Assembly (NCBI GenBank): GCA_905234185.1
Contig: CAJOGC010000002.1
Span: 103,949 to 167,948 of the forward strand
Direction: 5' to 3'
Source: an uncultured Alphaproteobacteria bacterium
GTDB taxonomy: Bacteria > Pseudomonadota > Alphaproteobacteria > Rs-D84
DNA: 64,000 nt
Each line of letters starts with the position of its first letter. Within the stretch, counting starts at the first letter, position 1. Of this stretch, positions 16,461 through 39,985 are shown in pieces. Below the pieces are notes generated by a model. The model ran no database searches. It was not told where the DNA came from and saw nothing but the letters and a program-made list of their open reading frames with translations. The position numbers were made by a program, and so were the translations under genes.

Positions 16461-16472
16461 GCACAATTTTCT

Positions 16473-16506
16473 AAAAAAAAACACCGGCAAACGCCGGTGT
16501 TTTTTT
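16473..16506. terminator. bidirectional terminator
   Basis: A9-CACCGGCaaaCGCCGGTG-T7. Confidence 0.7.
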
Positions 16507-16897
16507 ATTCCCAATAGTCATCATAATAATCCGTTTTGGTTGTTTTTTTCTTCATAACAGGGGTTGTTTTTTGTTTCGTTTTCTTCTTTTTTTCCGTATA
16601 TGCAAATTTCCATTGTTTATAACTTAATGGTGTTTTTCCTTGTTTATCACAATTTACTAAATATTTTCTGTATTTTTCTCGTTGATTTTTACGCTTTTTG
16701 TTTTCTTGTTTTCCATATTCTATACCAATAGATAGCATTGTTATTGCGAATATTACCGCAATATAACCAATAGATAATATTATCCAAAACAAAGAACGAA
16801 TGACAACATCATCTAAACTGGCAAAAGCAGGAAAAGAGCAAGTTAAAAATAAAGACACAAAAAAGATGATTTTTTTCATTTTCTTTTCCTCTTTCAT
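16505..16897 (-). CDS. small membrane protein with Lys-rich tail
   Basis: It has a signal-like N-terminus (MKKIIFFVSLFLTCSFPAFA), one further TM helix, and a strongly basic tail (KKRKNQREKYRK...KKKKTKQK...KKK). It overlaps the upstream gene by 4 nt. Confidence 0.55.
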   Translation of the reverse strand: MKEEKKMKKIIFFVSLFLTCSFPAFASLDDVVIRSLFWIILSIGYIAVIFAITMLSIGIEYGKQENKKRKNQREKYRKYLVNCDKQGKTPLSYKQWKFAYTEKKKKTKQKTTPVMKKKTTKTDYYDDYWE

Positions 16898-17169
16898 TCA
16901 TCTAATAGATCATTTAAAATCTCTATCGCCATTTTTCCGAATCTGGCGCCATTGAAAGAAACTTTATTACTTAATACATTTGCTTGCAGTTGATGTCTTA
17001 GAGCTCTGATACTGTCCTTGCTTGGGATAGTATTAAAATAATTGTTTATTATATAATTAAAGAATTCTTGACTTTGGGCATGTGTTATTTGGTTTGCCAC
17101 AAACCGTACGTTTGATTTACCGCCCATAGAAAAATAAATCCCTTTTACGATATCATCTAGTATGAACAT
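16894..17169 (-). CDS. hypothetical protein, 91 aa
   Basis: The start is moved to ATG 17169 (MFILDDIV), which has an AAGGGG RBS. The track start TTG 17214 lies inside the upstream terminator hairpin. Confidence 0.5.
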   Translation of the reverse strand: MFILDDIVKGIYFSMGGKSNVRFVANQITHAQSQEFFNYIINNYFNTIPSKDSIRALRHQLQANVLSNKVSFNGARFGKMAIEILNDLLDE

Positions 17170-17195
17170 TATCAGCCCCTTGGTGTATATTTTAT

Positions 17196-17403
17196 AAAAA
17201 ACAAAACCGCCCAAGAAAGAGCGGTCGGGGAGTTAGAAAATCAGTTAAGTATGACTCCGCGGTCTTTAGATATACACACGCGGCTCCCCAACCATAGGTC
17301 AGGGATGATTACGGTGCAAAAACACCGAAACATCATTTTAACGATGCTTTCGCACCGACTTAACAGGACTTTCTACAGCCCGAACCCAATCTCTTGGATT
17401 CAT
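17196..17403 (-). ncRNA. candidate structured leader/attenuator RNA, copy A (unclassified)
   Basis: It starts downstream of a TTGCAA-16-TATAAT promoter and ends in a hairpin plus U-run just 5' of the RBS of the 16894 gene. It shares ordered conserved blocks and covarying helices with copy B at 26766..26982. Confidence 0.55.
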
Positions 17404-17408
17404 TTCTT

Positions 17409-17436
17409 ATTATACCTTATTTATGCCTAATTGCAA
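17409..17436 (-). promoter_or_regulatory. sigma70-like promoter of leader RNA A
   Basis: On the minus strand: TTGCAA (17436..17431), a 16-nt spacer, then TATAAT (17414..17409). Confidence 0.6.
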
Positions 17437-17449
17437 ACAGATTGATTTA

Positions 17450-17483
17450 TCATTGCGAGGGAGCATAGCGACCGCGGCAATCC
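17450..17483. repeat. short palindromic repeat (CATTGCGA...CAATCC type)
   Basis: tCATTGCGAGGGAGCATAGCGACCGCGGCAATCC. A related unit lies at 24971..25002. Confidence 0.6.
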
Positions 17484-17489
17484 ATAAAA

Positions 17490-17616
17490 ACTACCCCGCC
17501 ACTTCGTGACACCCCTTCGCTCGCGAAGGGGATTTTACTTTCTGGAATCATAGCATAAATCCCCTTCACTGTGTGAAGGGGTGGATTGCGAACGTTAGTG
17601 AGAAAGACGGGGTAGT
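17490..17616 (+). repeat. PAL-A palindromic element, copy 1 (~127 bp)
   Basis: The terminal inverted repeats are CTACCCCG...CGGGGTAG. The internal hairpins are CCCCTTC..GAAGGGG x2 and a central CTGGAATCAT. Related copies lie at 25701..25835 and 27027..27100. Confidence 0.8.
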
Positions 17617-17618
17617 CC

Positions 17619-17686
17619 CCTGCCCCCTTGTGGGGCGGGATAGATTTATTTACGAACAAAGTGAGTTAATAAATCTTGGGTGGGGG
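17619..17686 (+). repeat. PAL-B element arm (CCTGCCCCC...CTTGGGTGGGGG)
   Basis: It has the same conserved ends as 39430..39501. It forms an inverted pair with 17707..17786 across a 20-nt spacer. Confidence 0.8.
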
Positions 17687-17706
17687 AATTATAGGCGTTC
17701 TGTTTG

Positions 17707-17786
17707 CCCCCACCCAAGAGTCGCTAGTTCACATACGTTCACAAGCCGACTCTGTCCCGCCCCGCACGCTTTGCGCGGGGGCAGGT
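17707..17786 (-). repeat. PAL-B element arm, inverted orientation
   Basis: CCCCCACCCAAGAGTCGC...GACTCTGTCCCGCCCC...GCGCGGGGGCAGG. Its reverse complement aligns along nearly its whole length with 39430..39501. It abuts the pyrG stop codon. Confidence 0.8.
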
Positions 17787-17789
17787 CAA

Positions 17790-19364
17790 TTAATGCTTGT
17801 GTTTCTTTGCTGCGGCGATGAATGCGTTAAACATCGGGTGGCCGGTGTATGGGCTGCTTTGGAACTCTGGATGGAATTGTCCGGCAATAAAGAACGGATG
17901 GTTTTTCAATTCCACTATTTCCGGCAGGCGTCCGTCGGGACTGCGTCCCGAAATTATCATGCCCGCGTCCGCGAATTGCTTTTCGTATTCTATATTCATC
18001 TCGTACCGATGACGGTGCCGTTCCGAAATATGTTCCGCGCCCCAAATACTGTGCGCCAGTGTCCCCGGCGTAATGTCGCACGGATACGCGCCCAATCGCA
18101 ATGTTCCCCCCATATTTTTCGAATCGTGATCTGCCATAATGCCAATCACTGGGGTGCAATTCTTGTTAAACTCGGTCGAATCGGCATCCGCAATGCCCAA
18201 AACATTACGCGCAAATTCAATGACGGCAACCTGCATCCCCAGGCATATACCCATATATGGCACGCCGTTTTCACGCGCATAACCCGCCGCGGCAATTTTA
18301 CCCGCGACCCCGCGCGAACCGAACCCGCCGGGCACCAAGATTCCGTCAACATCGCTACACGTTTCCGGTGTGAATTCTTCGGCATTTATCTTTTTAATCT
18401 TTACATGCACATTGTTTTGGATGCCGGCGTGAAACAGTGCCTCGTTCAGCGATTTATACGCATCCGGCACATGAAAGTATTTTCCCACCATGCCGATTGT
18501 GACCGTCGGCAAATCCGCATCCAGGTAATGTTCAATCCGCCGAAACCTGTCCATATTGCCCGCGGCGTTTGGCAAACCAAAATGGTCGGCAATTATATCA
18601 AAGACATGTTGTGCGTCATATGCCAATGGAATCTTGTAAATATTATCAACATCAATGCCACTAATTACATTCTGCGCCGGCAAATTACAGAACATACCGA
18701 TTTTTGCGCGTTCATCCGGTTCCAACATGCGCGGTGTTCGCACGATTAGCATATCTGCCTGAATCCCGTTTTCAAGTAAGTTCCGCACCGACATTTGTGT
18801 TGGTTTTGTCTTTAATTCGCCACTTTTTTCCAAATATGGTGCCAATGTTAAATGAATAAACATAACATTGCGGCGACCAACATCGTTCGCAAATTGACGG
18901 ATTGATTCCAAAAATATCTTGCCCTCGATATCGCCCACCGTTCCGCCGATTTCACAGACAACGAAATCAGTATCGGTTGGTGCGGAAATATATTCTTTTA
19001 TCTTATTACTGACGTGCGGAATCATTTGCACTGTCGCGCCCAGATAATCGCCGCGTCGTTCCGCATTTAGAACATCCCAATATATGCGCCCACCAGACAC
19101 AGAATCGGCGCGACCCAATTTTGCACCCAAAAACCGTTCGTAATATCCCAGATCCAAGTCCGTTTCAAAACCGTCGTTTGTCACATAAACCTCGCCATGC
19201 TGAAACGGGGACATTGTGCCCGGGTCTATATTCAAATAAGGGTCAAATTTTCGCGCATGAACGGTATATCCGCGCGATTGTAAAAGGGCGCCACAACTTG
19301 CCGCCGCGACGCCCTTGCCTAAACTGGAAACCACACCACCGGTAATGAATATATATTTCGCCAT
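17790..19364 (-). CDS. pyrG: CTP synthase
   Basis: MAKYIFITGGVVSSLGKG and a C-terminal glutamine amidotransferase domain (GICLGMQ, HRHRYE) are present. Confidence 0.95.
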   Translation of the reverse strand: MAKYIFITGGVVSSLGKGVAAASCGALLQSRGYTVHARKFDPYLNIDPGTMSPFQHGEVYVTNDGFETDLDLGYYERFLGAKLGRADSVSGGRIYWDVLNAERRGDYLGATVQMIPHVSNKIKEYISAPTDTDFVVCEIGGTVGDIEGKIFLESIRQFANDVGRRNVMFIHLTLAPYLEKSGELKTKPTQMSVRNLLENGIQADMLIVRTPRMLEPDERAKIGMFCNLPAQNVISGIDVDNIYKIPLAYDAQHVFDIIADHFGLPNAAGNMDRFRRIEHYLDADLPTVTIGMVGKYFHVPDAYKSLNEALFHAGIQNNVHVKIKKINAEEFTPETCSDVDGILVPGGFGSRGVAGKIAAAGYARENGVPYMGICLGMQVAVIEFARNVLGIADADSTEFNKNCTPVIGIMADHDSKNMGGTLRLGAYPCDITPGTLAHSIWGAEHISERHRHRYEMNIEYEKQFADAGMIISGRSPDGRLPEIVELKNHPFFIAGQFHPEFQSSPYTGHPMFNAFIAAAKKHKH

Positions 19365-25700: not shown

Positions 25701-25835
25701 CACTACCCCGCCTCGTTCCACTCGGCACCCTTTCACTGGAGTGAAGGGGAATTAAATTATCTGGAATCATATACCAGGTAATAAAAAATCCCCTTCATTG
25801 TATGAAGGGGTGGACGCGTAGCGGACGGGGTAGTG
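25701..25835 (+). repeat. PAL-A palindromic element, copy 2
   Basis: CACTACCCCG...CGGGGTAGTG termini with internal CCCTTTCACTGGAGTGAAGGGG and CCCCTTCATTGTATGAAGGGG hairpins. Confidence 0.8.
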
Positions 25836-25883: not shown

Positions 25884-26747
25884 TTATTCATCCACACCGT
25901 AAATAAAATCGCCTGTGCCGGAATTACCATAAAACTTCTGTCCAACAACATCCCACATGCCATTTGCCGGAACCGTATAATTACCAATCACCATACCGGC
26001 GGGGACCGGAATAAAGTGTCCCAACAAAGTATCACCATTATATATCACAACATCATACCAATTCATCGTTCGTGACCAATATTCATCCCACCACGAACCA
26101 AAAACAATTGTATCTTCACCAGTTGCGACATAATTAATATCAAATGTTTGTTTAGTTCGTTCTTTGAATTGTGCACATGTTAAATCAGGAAAAACACGTA
26201 ATAATCTTGGGGCCCTATTATTCAACGACACTATACCACTGCTATAAGTTATGTAATTTGTCCCCAAAACGTTAGGGAAGGCACTACTACTGGCAAAAAA
26301 CATTGCGCGGTCTTCATAGCCTCTTGGTGGCGTTTCTATGTGTCTGTATCCAACTGTAAAAACGACCCTGCTGGAATCCAACCAATTTACACCTGTATCT
26401 ATATTATTTAAATACCCGTTTGTTACATCGTTTTGTATTTTCAAATACACATCGTCGTCCGCACCAACCAGACAATCACCAACAAACCAATGATGCCCCA
26501 CGTGTGTCTTGGTGCCAATGCATGCACTGTATACAGCATTATCATACATAACATGCAATGTATTTGTCAGATTTTTTCGAACCATTGGTATATGATAAAC
26601 ACTGCCGTTATCGGTCATTATATTAAAAGATGGCATTCCGAACTTTTCAGCATGTGCCGGTATGGACGCATTACCAATGCGCAATGCATAGCCCCAACAA
26701 ATTGTTGGTGCCAATATCAATAAAAATATTACTAATATTTTTCTCAA
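25884..26747 (-). CDS. secreted hypothetical protein (~287 aa)
   Basis: A signal peptide is present (RKILVIFLLILAPTICWGYA). The start is uncertain: TTG 26747 is preferred because TTG 26768 lies in the U-run of the upstream terminator. The C-terminus ...GQKFYGNSGTGDFIYGVDE recalls beta-sandwich tail-fibre or lectin-like proteins, but only weakly. Confidence 0.6.
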   Translation of the reverse strand: MRKILVIFLLILAPTICWGYALRIGNASIPAHAEKFGMPSFNIMTDNGSVYHIPMVRKNLTNTLHVMYDNAVYSACIGTKTHVGHHWFVGDCLVGADDDVYLKIQNDVTNGYLNNIDTGVNWLDSSRVVFTVGYRHIETPPRGYEDRAMFFASSSAFPNVLGTNYITYSSGIVSLNNRAPRLLRVFPDLTCAQFKERTKQTFDINYVATGEDTIVFGSWWDEYWSRTMNWYDVVIYNGDTLLGHFIPVPAGMVIGNYTVPANGMWDVVGQKFYGNSGTGDFIYGVDE

Positions 26748-26765
26748 CCCCGAATTCCCCAACCG

Positions 26766-26982
26766 CAAAAAATAACCGTCAATCTGTGGACTGACGGTCG
26801 GGGTGTTCGAAAATCATATACAACAATGACCCTGTGATTTTTACACCACAGCACCCCGACCTTTTATATCGGGGTTTGGTAACGACACAAATGCGTATGA
26901 TTTCTTAAGCGATTACGGACGCACTTGCACCGGTTGTATATGGGCTTTCGACGGCCCCGAACCTGTGCCACCACAGATTCAT
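26766..26982 (-). ncRNA. candidate structured leader/attenuator RNA, copy B (unclassified)
   Basis: It lies downstream of a TTGCAT-18-TATAAT promoter. It ends in CCGTCA-gtccacagat-TGACGG + TTATTTTTT immediately 5' of the 25884 gene. Its blocks are conserved and its helices covary with copy A. Confidence 0.55.
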
Positions 26983-26987
26983 TTCTT

Positions 26988-27017
26988 ATTATAAAACATT
27001 TGGTATATTTTATGCAA
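26988..27017 (-). promoter_or_regulatory. sigma70-like promoter of leader RNA B
   Basis: On the minus strand: TTGCAT (27017..27012), an 18-nt spacer, then TATAAT (26993..26988). The 18 nt from the -10 box onward (TATAATAAGAAATGAATC) are identical to copy A. Confidence 0.6.
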
Positions 27018-27026
27018 TATTAAAAA

Positions 27027-27100
27027 CACTACCCCGTCACTTCGTGACACCCCTTCGCACGGCAAAGGGGATTTTTAGTATCTGGAATATGATTCCATAG
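27027..27100 (+). repeat. PAL-A element, truncated copy 3 (left half)
   Basis: CACTACCCCGTCACTTCGTGACACCCCTTCGCACGGCAAAGGGGATTTTTAGTATCTGGAAT... matches the left half of copies 1 and 2. Confidence 0.7.
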
Positions 27101-27176: not shown

Positions 27177-27251
27177 ACTGTTTGATAGATCTTGTGTAAG
27201 AGTATATGATGAATAACCCCATAAAAAATACCAGCATTTGCCGGTATTTTT

Positions 27252-27710
27252 TTATTTTTGTAATTCACGGCGGATGGCCATCAGGGTTTTTCCGATTCTG
27301 TTTTCGCCACTGCCGATTCCAAACCCACATTTATAGCAAACTGGGCATGCTTTTATCAAAATCGCATCGCCGGTACTTTTTAACAATTCTGCCGCGTCTG
27401 CATTTTGTTGAAACTTTGCATGCAATGCGTTTTCCATAATTTCAAATTTACGTTTATCAAAGTCCGCGCGACGATTGACTTTATATTCCGGTGTTTTTGT
27501 TATCAGACGGGCATCATCGGCATTTTTCATATTCAAAATCACATCAAAACGCGGGTCCGATGCGTAAAACTTCATTGCCTGGTAATAATGTTCCGCGGAC
27601 GGAAATACAAAATCGCGTCCATCAACATTCATTTTTATTGGGAACGATGCCAACGGTGATAAAAACCAGTATTCGCCCACTGGCGCACAAAATCGTATTT
27701 CCGTTGCCAT
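27252..27710 (-). CDS. NADAR (DUF1768/YbiA-like) family protein
   Basis: YWFLSPLASFP...FPSAEHYYQAMKF...KFEIMENALHAKFQQN...LLKSTGDAILI...GFGIGSGENRIGKTLMAIR fits the NADAR pattern. It starts 1 nt after the RND stop. Confidence 0.8.
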   Translation of the reverse strand: MATEIRFCAPVGEYWFLSPLASFPIKMNVDGRDFVFPSAEHYYQAMKFYASDPRFDVILNMKNADDARLITKTPEYKVNRRADFDKRKFEIMENALHAKFQQNADAAELLKSTGDAILIKACPVCYKCGFGIGSGENRIGKTLMAIRRELQK

Positions 27711-33314: not shown

Positions 33315-33400
33315 TGGGGTGTCGTTCCGTTTCCTCGGCTAACGCCTCGCCCGGAATGACAACGACTATGTCATGTGGATATAGTTCGTTCCAAGTTCAC
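33315..33400 (+). repeat. copy of tRNA-Gln nt 1-11 followed by PAL-C palindromic element
   Basis: TGGGGTGTCGT is identical to the first 11 nt of the tRNA. It is followed by TCCGTTTCCTCGGCTAACGCCTCGCCCGGAATGACAACGAC and 34 nt of spacer. Confidence 0.75.
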
Positions 33401-33474
33401 TGGGGTGTCGTCTAATGGTAGGACAAGAGATTTTGGTTCTCTTTATCATGGTTCGAATCCGTGCGCCCCAACCA
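33401..33474 (+). tRNA. tRNA-Gln (anticodon TTG)
   Basis: Manual cloverleaf: acceptor TGGGGTG/CGCCCCA, D arm GTCT-AATGGTA-GGAC, anticodon arm AGAGA-TTTTGGT-TCTCT, T arm CATGG-TTCGAAT-CCGTG, and an encoded ACCA. Confidence 0.9.
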
Positions 33475-34358: not shown

Positions 34359-34368
34359 ATTGCCACAC

Positions 34369-34498
34369 GGTCCCATCGTTCCGTTCCCTCGCTCCGCTCG
34401 CCCGGAATGACAACGACGACGGGACGATAGACGGTCCCATCGTTCCGTTCCCTCGCTCCGCTCGCCCGGAATGACAACGACGACGGGACGACATAGAC
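34369..34498 (+). repeat. tandem 64/66-bp units: tRNA-Glu nt 1-11 + PAL-C palindromic element, x2
   Basis: Each unit is GGTCCCATCGT + TCCGTTCCCTCGCTCCGCTCGCCCGGAATGACAACGACGACGGGACG(A/ACA)TAGAC, at 34369..34432 and 34433..34498. The intact tRNA follows directly. Confidence 0.85.
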
Positions 34499-34573
34499 GG
34501 TCCCATCGTCTAGCGGTTAGGACATCGGATTCTCATTCCGGTAACATGGGTTCGATTCCCATTGGGACTGCCA
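34499..34573 (+). tRNA. tRNA-Glu (anticodon CTC)
   Basis: Manual cloverleaf: acceptor GGTCCCA/TGGGACT (G1-U72 wobble), D arm GTCT-AGCGGTTA-GGAC, anticodon arm TCGGA-TTCTCAT-TCCGG, T arm ATGGG-TTCGATT-CCCAT, and an encoded GCCA. Confidence 0.9.
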
Positions 34574-34664
34574 AATTTTGTTATTATGCACAATTAAGAA
34601 ATTTGAATATCATATTTTTGTAATGTAATTTTTATAAAAAACACCGGTAAAAGCCGGCGTTTTT

Positions 34665-35228
34665 TTACCTTTTTGGCGTTACAAAATAAATATCCGCTAC
34701 ACGTGGCGGGATTTCGATATTTTTTGAATCATAAATATACTTTTCCCCGGCTTTTTTTATCGCTATTTCACCAATACCGACTCCGGTTTCATTTTTACCA
34801 CGACTATCGTTTTGATGTGGATAACGCGTACTGTCAATAACACGCATTTGAAAACTATCCATATCACAACGCATAATTTTATCAACAAACATACAGTGCC
34901 CATTACCATCGGGAAACACCACAACTAAAATACAATTTTCTGTGGGTTGATTGGTGAATTGCCAATACTTAAAATCATCTGCGTGTTCATGTATAAACGC
35001 AAAGTCTTTACAAAACAGGCGATTTATCTTTATAAAATTATGTTTTCGCAGAAACGCACGCACTTCGACCAATGCGCGTTTATACCCCGATTGTTCAAGA
35101 CACCAATAAACAAAACCACTGCAATCCATATAAAAAAATCGTCGATCATCAATCAAATCTATTCGATTATCATGACTGTATTCAGATTGAAAATCATTGG
35201 TCAAAAATTTTTTGATAAAATCGTTCAT
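34665..35228 (-). CDS. NlpC/P60-like cysteine peptidase-fold protein without signal peptide
   Basis: A catalytic-type block (FYMDCSGFVYWCLEQSG) and a later His block (GNGHCMFV) are present. The start is moved to ATG 35228 (MNDFIKKF) because the track N-terminus translates the flanking terminator hairpin. Confidence 0.6.
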   Translation of the reverse strand: MNDFIKKFLTNDFQSEYSHDNRIDLIDDRRFFYMDCSGFVYWCLEQSGYKRALVEVRAFLRKHNFIKINRLFCKDFAFIHEHADDFKYWQFTNQPTENCILVVVFPDGNGHCMFVDKIMRCDMDSFQMRVIDSTRYPHQNDSRGKNETGVGIGEIAIKKAGEKYIYDSKNIEIPPRVADIYFVTPKR

Positions 35229-35276
35229 TTTATATTCCCAAAAAAACACCGGTAAAAGCCGGCGTTTTTTCATTTA

Positions 35277-38876: not shown

Positions 38877-38979
38877 TACGGTAAAACCCAAAACGGTTTT
38901 TATAAAAAATCCGGCAATCGCCGGTTTTTTATTTATAATAAAATCTTAAAATAAATGGGGCAAATGCCCCATTTCCAAT

Positions 38980-39429: not shown

Positions 39430-39501
39430 CCTGCCCCCATTTTGTGGGGCGGGACAGAGTCGGCTTATGAACGCAGTGAATTAGCGACTCTTGGGTGGGG
39501 G
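39430..39501 (+). repeat. PAL-B element arm flanking the DUF559 gene (left)
   Basis: CCTGCCCCCATTTTGTGGGGCGGGACAGAGTCGGCTTATGAACGCAGTGAATTAGCGACTCTTGGGTGGGGG. It ends 2 nt before the DUF559 stop codon. Confidence 0.8.
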
Positions 39502-39503
39502 CA

Positions 39504-39890
39504 TTATTTTCCCCATCGCGACACAAAAAATTCATTAAAATCCAAATGTTCGTTTATACACATGTGCAATGTATCAACAACCGTTTTCATACCTTGTTTC
39601 GTTAATTCTGCATTTGCAACACGAATAACTTTATAGCCCTGTGATTCTATAAACTCTGTGCGCTTGTTGTCGTATTCAATATTTTCTGCGTGTTGGTTGC
39701 CATCAAGTTCAATAACCAATTTCAATTCATTACACACAAAATCAACATAATATGGACCAAACGGTTGTTGCCGGCGGAACTTTACCCCCAGTTTGTTATT
39801 ATTAATTTGATACCAGAATTTGCGTTCTGGGTCAGACATATTTTTACGCAGGTTTTTTGCACGAATAATGTTTGCTGGGTGATTTGTCAT
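39504..39890 (-). CDS. DUF559 (Vsr-like PD-(D/E)XK) endonuclease-domain protein
   Basis: AKNLRKNMSDPERKFWYQI...KFRRQQPFGPYYVDFVCNELKLVIELDGNQH...YDNKRTEFIESQGYKVIRV is the typical DUF559 sequence. Confidence 0.8.
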   Translation of the reverse strand: MTNHPANIIRAKNLRKNMSDPERKFWYQINNNKLGVKFRRQQPFGPYYVDFVCNELKLVIELDGNQHAENIEYDNKRTEFIESQGYKVIRVANAELTKQGMKTVVDTLHMCINEHLDFNEFFVSRWGK

Positions 39891-39902
39891 AATACAATTT
39901 TA

Positions 39903-39985
39903 CCCCCACCCAAGATTTTCATCAACATTAAAAATGTTGTGAAAATCTGTCCCGCCCCACACGCACAATGTGCGCGGGGGCAGGT
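39903..39985 (-). repeat. PAL-B element arm flanking the DUF559 gene (right, inverted)
   Basis: CCCCCACCCAAGATTTTCATCAACATTAAAAATGTTGTGAAAATCTGTCCCGCCCCACACGCACAATGTGCGCGGGGGCAGG. It starts 12 nt upstream of the DUF559 ATG. On the minus strand it supplies TTGATG-17-TAAAAT. Confidence 0.8.

Follow-up and report, generated by a model that had tools for sequence, protein, structure and literature searches.

Next to the 3' end of pyrG in a 64,000-nucleotide stretch of DNA from an uncultured Alphaproteobacteria bacterium (contig CAJOGC010000002.1; the whole 64-kb stretch is referred to below as the window), two copies of a palindromic repeat, PAL-B, face each other across a short spacer, and a second facing pair, at 39.4 kb, encloses a gene for a YcjD-type endonuclease of the DUF559 family. 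The account that we favor, with moderate confidence, is that PAL-B arms are repeats of the type known as BoxC, potential intrastrand triplex (PIT) or triplex motif (TM) elements, that the doublet beside pyrG is a non-autonomous unit and the arm-DUF559-arm arrangement its full form, and that the nuclease acts on the arms. The repeats of this locus would then be the two ends of a small-nuclease unit, with gene-less copies that vary between close relatives. An earlier note on the locus, made from the window alone, had overlooked both that the arms are of the BoxC/PIT/TM class and that their link to DUF559 reaches far beyond one genome. Repeats of this class have been reported from E. coli since the 1990s and are present in hundreds of genomes; BoxC and PIT elements were reportedly treated by Bachellier in the 1990s and by Hoyne and Maher in 2000.

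Exactly four PAL-B arms are present in the window, and they form the two convergent pairs 17619-17785 and 39430-39984. TCTTGGGTGGGGG and CCTGCCCCC occur four times each in the 64 kb, in the arms only, against 0.88 and 0.22 occurrences expected from shuffles. A covariance model of the arm, searched over the 64 kb with its filters off, recovered the four arms alone (62.7-76.3 bits, E values from 4e-13 to 3e-16), the best match outside them reaching 9 bits. An arm consists of CCTGCCCC(C), a short first loop that is sometimes 14-19 nt long and then holds a small extra hairpin, GGGGCGGG, the sequence A-Y-A-G, a hairpin (hairpin 2) with a stem of about 8 bp and a variable top, and (C)TTGGGTGGGGG; this last part carries an invariant GGGTGGGGG block, which is the mirror of the G-block.

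At pyrG, the left arm (17619..17686, plus strand; 74.7 bits with the covariance model and also matched by nhmmer) reads CCTGCCCC(C)-TTGT-GGGGCGGG, then hairpin 2 (AGATTTAT...ATAAATCT) and TGGGTGGGGG, and was accepted by the triplex-motif scan with a second loop of 38 nt. It is followed by the 20-nt spacer AATTATAGGCGTTCTGTTTG (17687..17706) and by the right arm (17707..17785, minus strand; 62.7 bits), which is of the gene-downstream type, has an extra GCGC..GCGTG hairpin in its first loop and stops 4 nt from the pyrG stop codon. The doublet lies directly 3' of pyrG (17790..19364, minus strand), which encodes CTP synthase (Pfam CTP_synth_N, E=2.6e-111, plus GATase). Its predicted fold has an energy of -93.5 kcal/mol (z=-8.5), and the fold is stable on both strands. 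The earlier note had held that the same arm pair is found at both loci, which is not so: the right arm at pyrG and the left arm at 39.4 kb have 82% identity overall and 93-96% over the part comprising hairpin 2 and the G-block, the left arm at pyrG and the gene-upstream arm at 39.4 kb being 68% identical, with a different, compensated stem. An extended first hairpin proved wrong as a mark to tell left from right arms, as it lies on the gene-upstream arm at 39 kb and on the other type at 17.6 kb.

Alignment A2 comprises 46 non-redundant arms drawn from a large number of genomes. In it, hairpin 1, formed by the C-block and the G-block, is invariant and includes a T.G pair at position 3, which also occurs in 13-14 of 15 arms outside the exact pattern used for the census described below. 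Hairpin 2 carries compensatory double changes at 7 of its 8 pairs; one pair, for example, is UA in 14 arms, GC in 13, CG in 12 and AU in 6. Paired cells make up 98% of hairpin 2, compared with 83.5% after column shuffling (0 of 500 shuffles reached the observed value) and 38-59% when the partners were slid, and the covariation is almost purely Watson-Crick, with 2 G.U cells. The T.G mismatch of hairpin 1 was considered as a Vsr-like recognition feature, a matter of speculation, and was set aside: it is kept in PAL-B but not in the motifs that accompany distant DUF559 genes, many of which pair perfectly or carry G.A in place of T.G.

BoxC and PIT repeats have been described as intrastrand triplex motifs, in which a pyrimidine block is followed by its purine complement and by a mirror purine block (Holder et al., 2015; PMC4666352). 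PAL-B follows the same three-block logic (CCTGCCCC / GGGGCGGG / GGGTGGGG): the first block is C-rich, the second is its G-rich complement, and the third, likewise G-rich, mirrors the second; the reversed third block gives G.G throughout, with T opposite a C:G inversion. Like the known repeats, PAL-B is intergenic, multi-copy, tied to local genome variability and often arranged as convergent pairs of two arm subtypes; inverted pairs of E. coli TM repeats are likewise convergent, with spacers of 16-27 nt according to the coordinates in Table 1 of PMC4666352, as in PAL-B doublets. Both also have one conserved mismatched duplex position, G.A in the E. coli "A mm" type and T.G in PAL-B. The two differ in the second loop, which in PAL-B is a covarying hairpin of 35-60 nt (8 bp) and not 3 nt, well outside the short-loop definition, and in the purine block, where PAL-B has the C:G inversion whose counterpart in the third block is a T. 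The published TM search (ITxF) allowed loops of 1-6 nt, and the TM_ECO loops are N3-6 and N3 (PMC4666352); PAL-B would escape such searches because they allowed loops of that size only. Holder et al. never found mobility functions near TM repeats, and the words "endonuclease" and "ycjD" are absent from their text (PMC4666352). In contrast to that work, which reports no associated gene or mobility function, PAL-B arms bracket DUF559, and TM no. 9 of E. coli adjoins ycjD. Taken together, the best supported assignment is that PAL-B would represent a hairpin-bearing variant of the BoxC/TM class, its triplex potential being read from the block pattern. A G-quadruplex made from the four G-tracts is possible, but triplex logic better fits the block-by-block mirror covariation seen across families. 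A full-text literature search found no paper that joins DUF559 or YcjD to intrastrand triplex repeats, although the coverage of that search was incomplete and an earlier description may exist elsewhere.

The full element at 39.4 kb consists of a downstream arm (39430..39501, plus strand; 76.3 bits), a 128-aa open reading frame (ORF) at 39504..39890 on the minus strand, the stop codon of which is 2 nt from this arm, and an upstream arm (39903..39984, minus strand; 63.9 bits). In the upstream arm, hairpin 2 is AGATTTTCA...TGAAAATCT and the first loop has an extra GCGCAC..GTGCG hairpin; an arm of this type is also found upstream of an 80%-identical DUF559 gene in another genome (L003). The encoded protein scores 117.6 bits with Pfam DUF559 (PF04480, E=3e-34), for which the curated cut-off is 20.6 bits, and also matches PDB entry 3HRL, an "endonuclease-like protein" of N. 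gonorrhoeae (E=1e-20), and the E. coli YcjD model, the last below that model's equivalog cut-off. It belongs to the Vsr-like PD-(D/E)XK enzymes, and D50, E61, D63, H67, R90 and N93 are invariant among 29 aligned homologues. From the Pfam and 3HRL matches and the invariant acidic and histidine residues, it is a putative competent nuclease. No transposase-like match was obtained for the protein in Pfam (which returned only DUF559 and MTES_1575 REase), NCBIfam or PADLOC. A promoter-like TTGATG-17 nt-TAAAAT sequence (39897..39925, minus strand; 9 of 12 positions in a consensus scan) has its boxes inside and just after the upstream arm, ending 6 nt before the ATG, and because of this spacing the DUF559 mRNA, if these consensus-matched boxes are active, could be leaderless.

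DUF559 proteins have been grouped with Vsr and with a homing endonuclease of a group I intron, in its catalytic domain (PMC3424549), and the Caulobacter family member VsrA causes a DNA-damage (SOS) response when its cognate methyltransferase is deleted (PMC12907096). The window protein shares its Pfam family, fold class and catalytic-type residues with N. gonorrhoeae 3HRL, E. coli YcjD, Caulobacter VsrA and the homing endonuclease I-Bth0305I, in the last case with its catalytic domain. It differs from Vsr-type endonucleases in that no methyltransferase partner was seen adjoining its gene, and the clade of arm-associated DUF559 proteins to which it belongs is extended at the C terminus by CIxxxxDxxxxFxSxW, which is absent from distant homologues.

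A census of PAL-B was made in species-representative genomes with the pattern CCTGCCCCCN{3,30}GGGCGGGN{30,60}GGGTGGGGG, which returned at least 118 loci. A hidden Markov model (HMM) of the arm keeps, among the matches listed, only loci from gut and termite Alphaproteobacteria, with hosts that include Candidatus Enterousia and termite-gut "Rickettsiales" metagenome-assembled genomes (MAGs); pattern matches in GC-rich genomes (Streptomyces, Azospirillum and others) were rejected as chance, since the HMM did not recover them, and viral contigs had no arm pattern apart from one chance match. At least 165 near-full arms were found in the gut and termite MAGs. Among the matches listed, neighboring arms within 1.5 kb of each other were convergent in 52 cases, tandem in 22 and divergent in 5. 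The convergent pairs were of two kinds: 44 of the 52 had spacers of 12-48 nt and no ORF, and the other 8 had spacers of 177-421 nt, every one of which contained DUF559 (seven full-length genes and, in L127, one C-terminal fragment). The arms accordingly do not occur singly and at random, the outcome that the earlier note had named as fatal to its proposal; in the matches listed they prefer to converge, and all long spacers hold DUF559. In L109, L116 and L056, a complete doublet stands on either side of the DUF559 gene, and other DUF559 genes have a degenerate upstream arm that retains a TTGACC box (L005, L108, L045).

The short spacers form conserved families within a genome, as in the MAG Gx485_bin8 with its 19-, 25- and 47-nt classes, and it follows that the whole doublet is a copied unit. 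In the MAG Gsp477_bin73, the 45-46-nt spacer of two doublets (L031/L091) matches the 5' and 3' junctions of a full element of the same genome (L028). These spacers, the census as a whole and the truncated gene of L127 bear out the earlier proposal that the pyrG doublet belongs, as a gene-less version resembling a miniature inverted-repeat transposable element (MITE), to the family of the DUF559-bearing element. As a separate observation, up to five arms of the gene-downstream type can form same-direction arrays (L045 2422-3400, L018 1710-2314, L090 6934-7369), with arm spacings of 3-6 nt or about 200 nt that are explained by no model considered here.

Homologues of pyrG and of DUF559 from entries named "MAG: Alphaproteobacteria bacterium" were used to compare sites; exact-protein matches of the window pyrG and thioesterase were to the same strain only. 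In two relatives with pyrG 93% (L136) and 95% (L137) identical to that of the window, TATG and PAL-A, another repeat family, come directly after the stop codon, with no PAL-B, and in a third (L138, 89% identical) both PAL-A and PAL-B are missing. The empty site reads TAA-TATG-ACTACC and the filled site TAA-TTGA-[167 bp]-GG-ACTACC. Because PAL-B is absent at pyrG in relatives as close as 93-95%, the doublet came or went at this site as one unit of 167 bp.

Homologues of the window DUF559 gene with 65-80% identity occur in unrelated neighborhoods and have the same flanking arms. The MAG SIG46 contains at least 4 copies of a full element of about 720-760 bp at different loci, identical at nearly every aligned position, and their inverted symmetry extends about 45 nt outside the arms. 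The L127 copy, from another MAG, lacks the first 81 DUF559 codons, and L070 is a mosaic: its upstream arm has a downstream-type hairpin, and the rest of the element is identical. As the empty site of the L003 insertion, the end of the window (63.6 kb) was examined and discarded, since its flanks gave no alignment and the contig of L003 stops 11 nt beyond the arm. It was also noted in SIG46 that one unique flank adjoins the 3' side of a DUF559 element in L096 (5188-5299) and the 5' side in L098 (4100-4240), which could be an inversion polymorphism over the long inverted ends or an assembly artefact at the repeat.

The association of DUF559 with repeats of this kind extends beyond PAL-B. Soil, sediment and other metagenomes supplied 79 distant DUF559 genes (36-55% identity), none of them with PAL-B arms. 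A home-made triplex scanner nevertheless detected, at 67 of these 79 loci, a TM-type motif no more than about 200 nt away from the ORF ends, with a density of 5.0 motifs per kb near the gene versus 0.17 per kb farther off, a 29-fold enrichment; in the usual layout a "+" motif lies just upstream of the start codon and a "-" motif at the stop codon. Flank-to-flank inverted repeats with z>5 were present at 14 of the 57 distant genes with adequate flanks, compared with 0 of 93 control positions. The flanking repeats obey the logic of PAL-B, as in CCCTCTCCC-ACT-GGGAGAGGG-TTA-GGGTGAGGG and CCTTCCCCC-TCT-GGGGGAAGG-CT-GGGATGGGGG, and in one locus (L147) a hairpin is found between the G-blocks. In E. 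coli K-12, CCCTCGCCCCTCTGGGGAGAGGGTTAGGGTGAGGGG, a sequence with a median of 19 copies per E. coli genome, lies about 170 nt downstream of ycjD and is TM_ECO no. 9 of Table 1 in PMC4666352.

Two further observations concern single loci. In E. coli K-12 (NC_000913.3, 1351200-1351420; L219), downstream of ycjD, a duplicated 3' fragment of the gene, ggagacggtgctggagaatattc..., has a BoxC remnant at the stop codon on one side and TM no. 9, intact, on the other, an arrangement that resembles an arm-gene-arm unit in decay. A TM-DUF559-TM unit is found between the same two conserved genes in three different GC-rich organisms known from metagenomes (L190 440-930, L193 1400-1900, L168 1420-1880), the upstream gene ending in ...GKPVRN* and the downstream gene starting with MS(K/S)(Q/K)(Q/V/L)(I/Q)..AYIV; the shared site suggests site-specific insertion or long vertical residence.

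These findings can be combined into a proposed mechanism. Two convergent arms, with their mirror blocks facing inward, would constitute a REPIN- or MITE-like unit of about 165 bp that is copied whole, and in the full form two such arms would enclose the 128-aa YcjD-type DUF559 gene, expressed from the promoter-like boxes of the upstream arm. The endonuclease would recognize the folded, probably single-stranded DNA of the arms and nick at or near them, and the nick would start copying or recombination by which full and gene-less units spread to new intergenic sites. The gene-less doublet at 17619-17785 would have arrived in this way beside older repeats, PAL-A and the CATTGCGA unit. Folded DNA is favored over RNA as the recognized form because the covariation is almost confined to Watson-Crick changes and because purine-motif triplexes are reported not to form in RNA (PMC4666352).

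Several points weigh against this account. Binding or cutting of the arms by the DUF559 enzyme, its role in their mobility and the chemistry of the move are all inferred. To our knowledge, a 128-aa single-domain nuclease of this kind is no known transposase, and we know of no transposase-like chemistry for the fold acting alone. No clean target-site duplication is apparent at pyrG, and in other copies the inverted symmetry runs into the flanks. About 37% of the arms in the matches listed are single or in same-direction arrays, and layouts are not uniform, given the genes between two doublets and the degenerate upstream arms. The census consists of MAG fragments, in which arms of one genome are not independent samples, and its search pattern fixed the conserved blocks, so that block conservation is partly built in. 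Finally, TM repeats are present in 5426 of 5426 complete E. coli genomes and ycjD in 3378, and the repeats therefore persist without ycjD. Transposition of the units, homing into empty doublets and processing of structures for the host are all candidate roles of the enzyme.

A homing endonuclease offers one alternative. According to this model, doublets pre-exist through some other process, and a free-standing DUF559 gene cuts the center of an empty doublet and is copied into it by repair that uses arm homology, which would make the doublet at 17.6 kb an unoccupied target and not a derivative. We judge this unlikely, although several observations agree with it: the gene lies at the center of the doublet, between inward-facing G-blocks, the Vsr/DUF559 clade includes the known group I intron homing enzyme mentioned above, and an empty spacer that joins the left junction of the full element to the right one is as compatible with insertion as with deletion. 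The mosaic arms of L070 suggest gene conversion, and truncated genes (L127, L087) would fit the decay phase of a homing cycle. What the model leaves unexplained is the arrival of gene-less doublets at new sites, such as the 3' end of pyrG; in addition, the extra inverted repeat shared by the SIG46 elements outside their arms indicates that they are copied as larger units, and genes also occur between two complete doublets.

It is more doubtful still that neither component is mobile, the arms being replication or transcription punctuation, terminators or mRNA stabilizers, and DUF559 a repair nuclease for the structures that they form, which came to lie among them through autoregulation or chance accretion. 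Such a host function would agree with the position and stability of the doublet 4 nt past the pyrG stop codon, with elements adjoining intrinsic terminators, with TM repeats that remain in E. coli genomes lacking ycjD and with the long vertical residence suggested by the L190, L193 and L168 units. TM motifs are also known to stall polymerases in vitro and to mark unstable loci in E. coli, but earlier tests cited in the same paper found neither promoter nor terminator activity in PIT elements (PMC4666352). Four features together argue for copying and not for fixed host signals: close relatives differ in whether they have the doublet, near-identical full elements recur at separate loci, the positions of DUF559 are non-syntenic, and spacers fall into conserved families.

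The earlier note had also offered the pyrG doublet as a footprint left after DUF559 was deleted in place from between the 17.6-kb arms. Internal deletion does occur in the family (L127), but the comparison of relatives did not support this reading, which we consider very improbable: the doublet is present or absent as a unit, PAL-B being missing from the site in both L136 and L137, its left arm differs from the promoter-bearing upstream type of the 39-kb copy, and it belongs to a class of doublets with 12-48-nt spacers that is multi-copy elsewhere. The weakest alternative, that the arms act as a small RNA or as a cis-regulatory or stabilizing element of flanking transcripts, draws on the strong covariation of hairpin 2, the stable folds of both strands and a U.G pair in hairpin 1 on the G-rich strand, but is scarcely tenable in view of the absence of any Rfam match to the arms of either locus at gathering thresholds or even at E<=10, the near-exclusive Watson-Crick character of the covariation, the occurrence of arms in both orientations and as inverted pairs regardless of the direction of neighboring genes, and a mirror-block logic that fits a purine-motif DNA triplex.

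The favored account, in which the doublets are non-autonomous units of a DUF559-bearing element, also has parallels in REPIN-RAYT systems and in MITEs. As in REPIN-RAYT systems (Bertels and Rainey, 2011, PMC3116915; Nunvar et al.), the replicating non-autonomous unit is a pair of inverted palindromic repeats set a short distance apart, repeats of the same kind flank a small gene of nuclease type, and the repeats are intergenic, near the 3' ends of genes. Unlike RAYT, the gene encodes a PD-(D/E)XK enzyme of the DUF559 family and not a Y1/HUH transposase, and PAL-B arms begin with CCTGCCCCC, without the GTAG/CGTC tag, GTAG being found only at the ends of the neighboring PAL-A. DUF559 can, moreover, lie inside a doublet, be multi-copy (SIG46) and be non-syntenic between related species; set against the single-copy inheritance of RAYT genes, there is one copy in the window and at least 4 in SIG46, and the L190, L193 and L168 units share flanking genes. 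MITEs formed by internal deletion of an insertion sequence (IS) resemble PAL-B in their terminal inverted arms, small size and many copies, and further in that the gene-less spacer combines both junctions of the full element (L031/L091 versus L028) and that a partly deleted intermediate exists (L127). In the window doublet, one arm only closely matches the resident full copy. PAL-B differs from MITEs in having no recognized transposase family and no definable target-site duplication, and in arms that are highly structured and conserved across very distant hosts.

Whether YcjD-type DUF559 enzymes are dedicated partners of BoxC/PIT/TM repeats across bacteria, forming a second, RAYT-independent repeat-nuclease system, is a broader proposal that we advance only tentatively. 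If correct, it would define a new class of small mobile elements, with triplex or hairpin DNA ends, recognition by a PD-(D/E)XK enzyme and gene-less doublets as non-autonomous progeny, and would explain the origin of the BoxC elements of E. coli. It would also give a candidate function to DUF559, a very large family with a "domain of unknown function", and a possible cause of the genome instability reported at BoxC/TM repeats. The proposal is testable in a model organism through the binding or cutting of BoxC by YcjD.

The nest of repeats between pyrG and its neighbor contains two other elements besides the doublet. On re-reading the sequence, all pieces that the earlier note had listed within 17450-17786 were found where it placed them, but they represent three repeat families and not the four palindromic types that it had counted. 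The short palindromic unit CATTGCGA...CAATCC (17450..17483, plus strand) is a separate family outside PAL-B; BLAST found one copy within the window, and in relatives it recurs after PAL-A at the pyrG site of L137 and near a DUF559 element in L099. PAL-A, also a separate family, is a 127-bp element (17490..17616) with terminal inverted ACTACCCCG / CGGGGTAGT and two CCCCTTC..GAAGGGG hairpins in its interior. BLAST located further copies in the window at 25702-25834 (full) and 27028-~27100 (half), and the equivalent pyrG site has a half copy in L136 and a full copy in L137.

The interval between pyrG and the RNHCP gene is a hot spot, in which the window exceeds L136 and L138 by about 1.28 kb (window 16505-17450; L136 4076-4126; L138 4079-4118; L137 4076-5260), and L137 carries other cargo between the same repeats. 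The extra DNA of the window consists of two ORFs without Pfam matches (16894-17214 and 16505-16897, minus strand) and a leader region of about 200 nt, and the ORFs follow a promoter-like site at 17437-17409. Similar leader-like regions, at 17216-17400 and 26780-27000, lie upstream of the Pfam-less ORFs 16894-17214 and 25884-26768; they have in common gattcatttcttattata, gacggtcgggg and cccgaac, and each is preceded by a copy of PAL-A. An Rfam search of the leader at 17216-17292 (minus strand) gave only a weak match to sRNA-Xcc1 (28.8 bits against a gathering score of 53). The PAL-A copies at 25702-25834 and 27028-27100 flank the 294-aa ORF 25884-26768 (minus strand), which matched no Pfam family, together with its leader, an arrangement that echoes PAL-B around DUF559.

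Near-identical, bidirectional terminator-like hairpins, AAAAACACCGGC...GCCGGTGTTTTT, recur at gene ends across the window (16469-16507, 27216-27254, 34629-34667, 35234-35272 and 38896-38934). A perfect 61-nt tandem direct repeat with a spacing of 64 nt (34367-34491) lies just upstream of a tRNA gene (34499-34570), and a 21-nt piece of it recurs at 33346-33366, upstream of the tRNA at 33401-33471.

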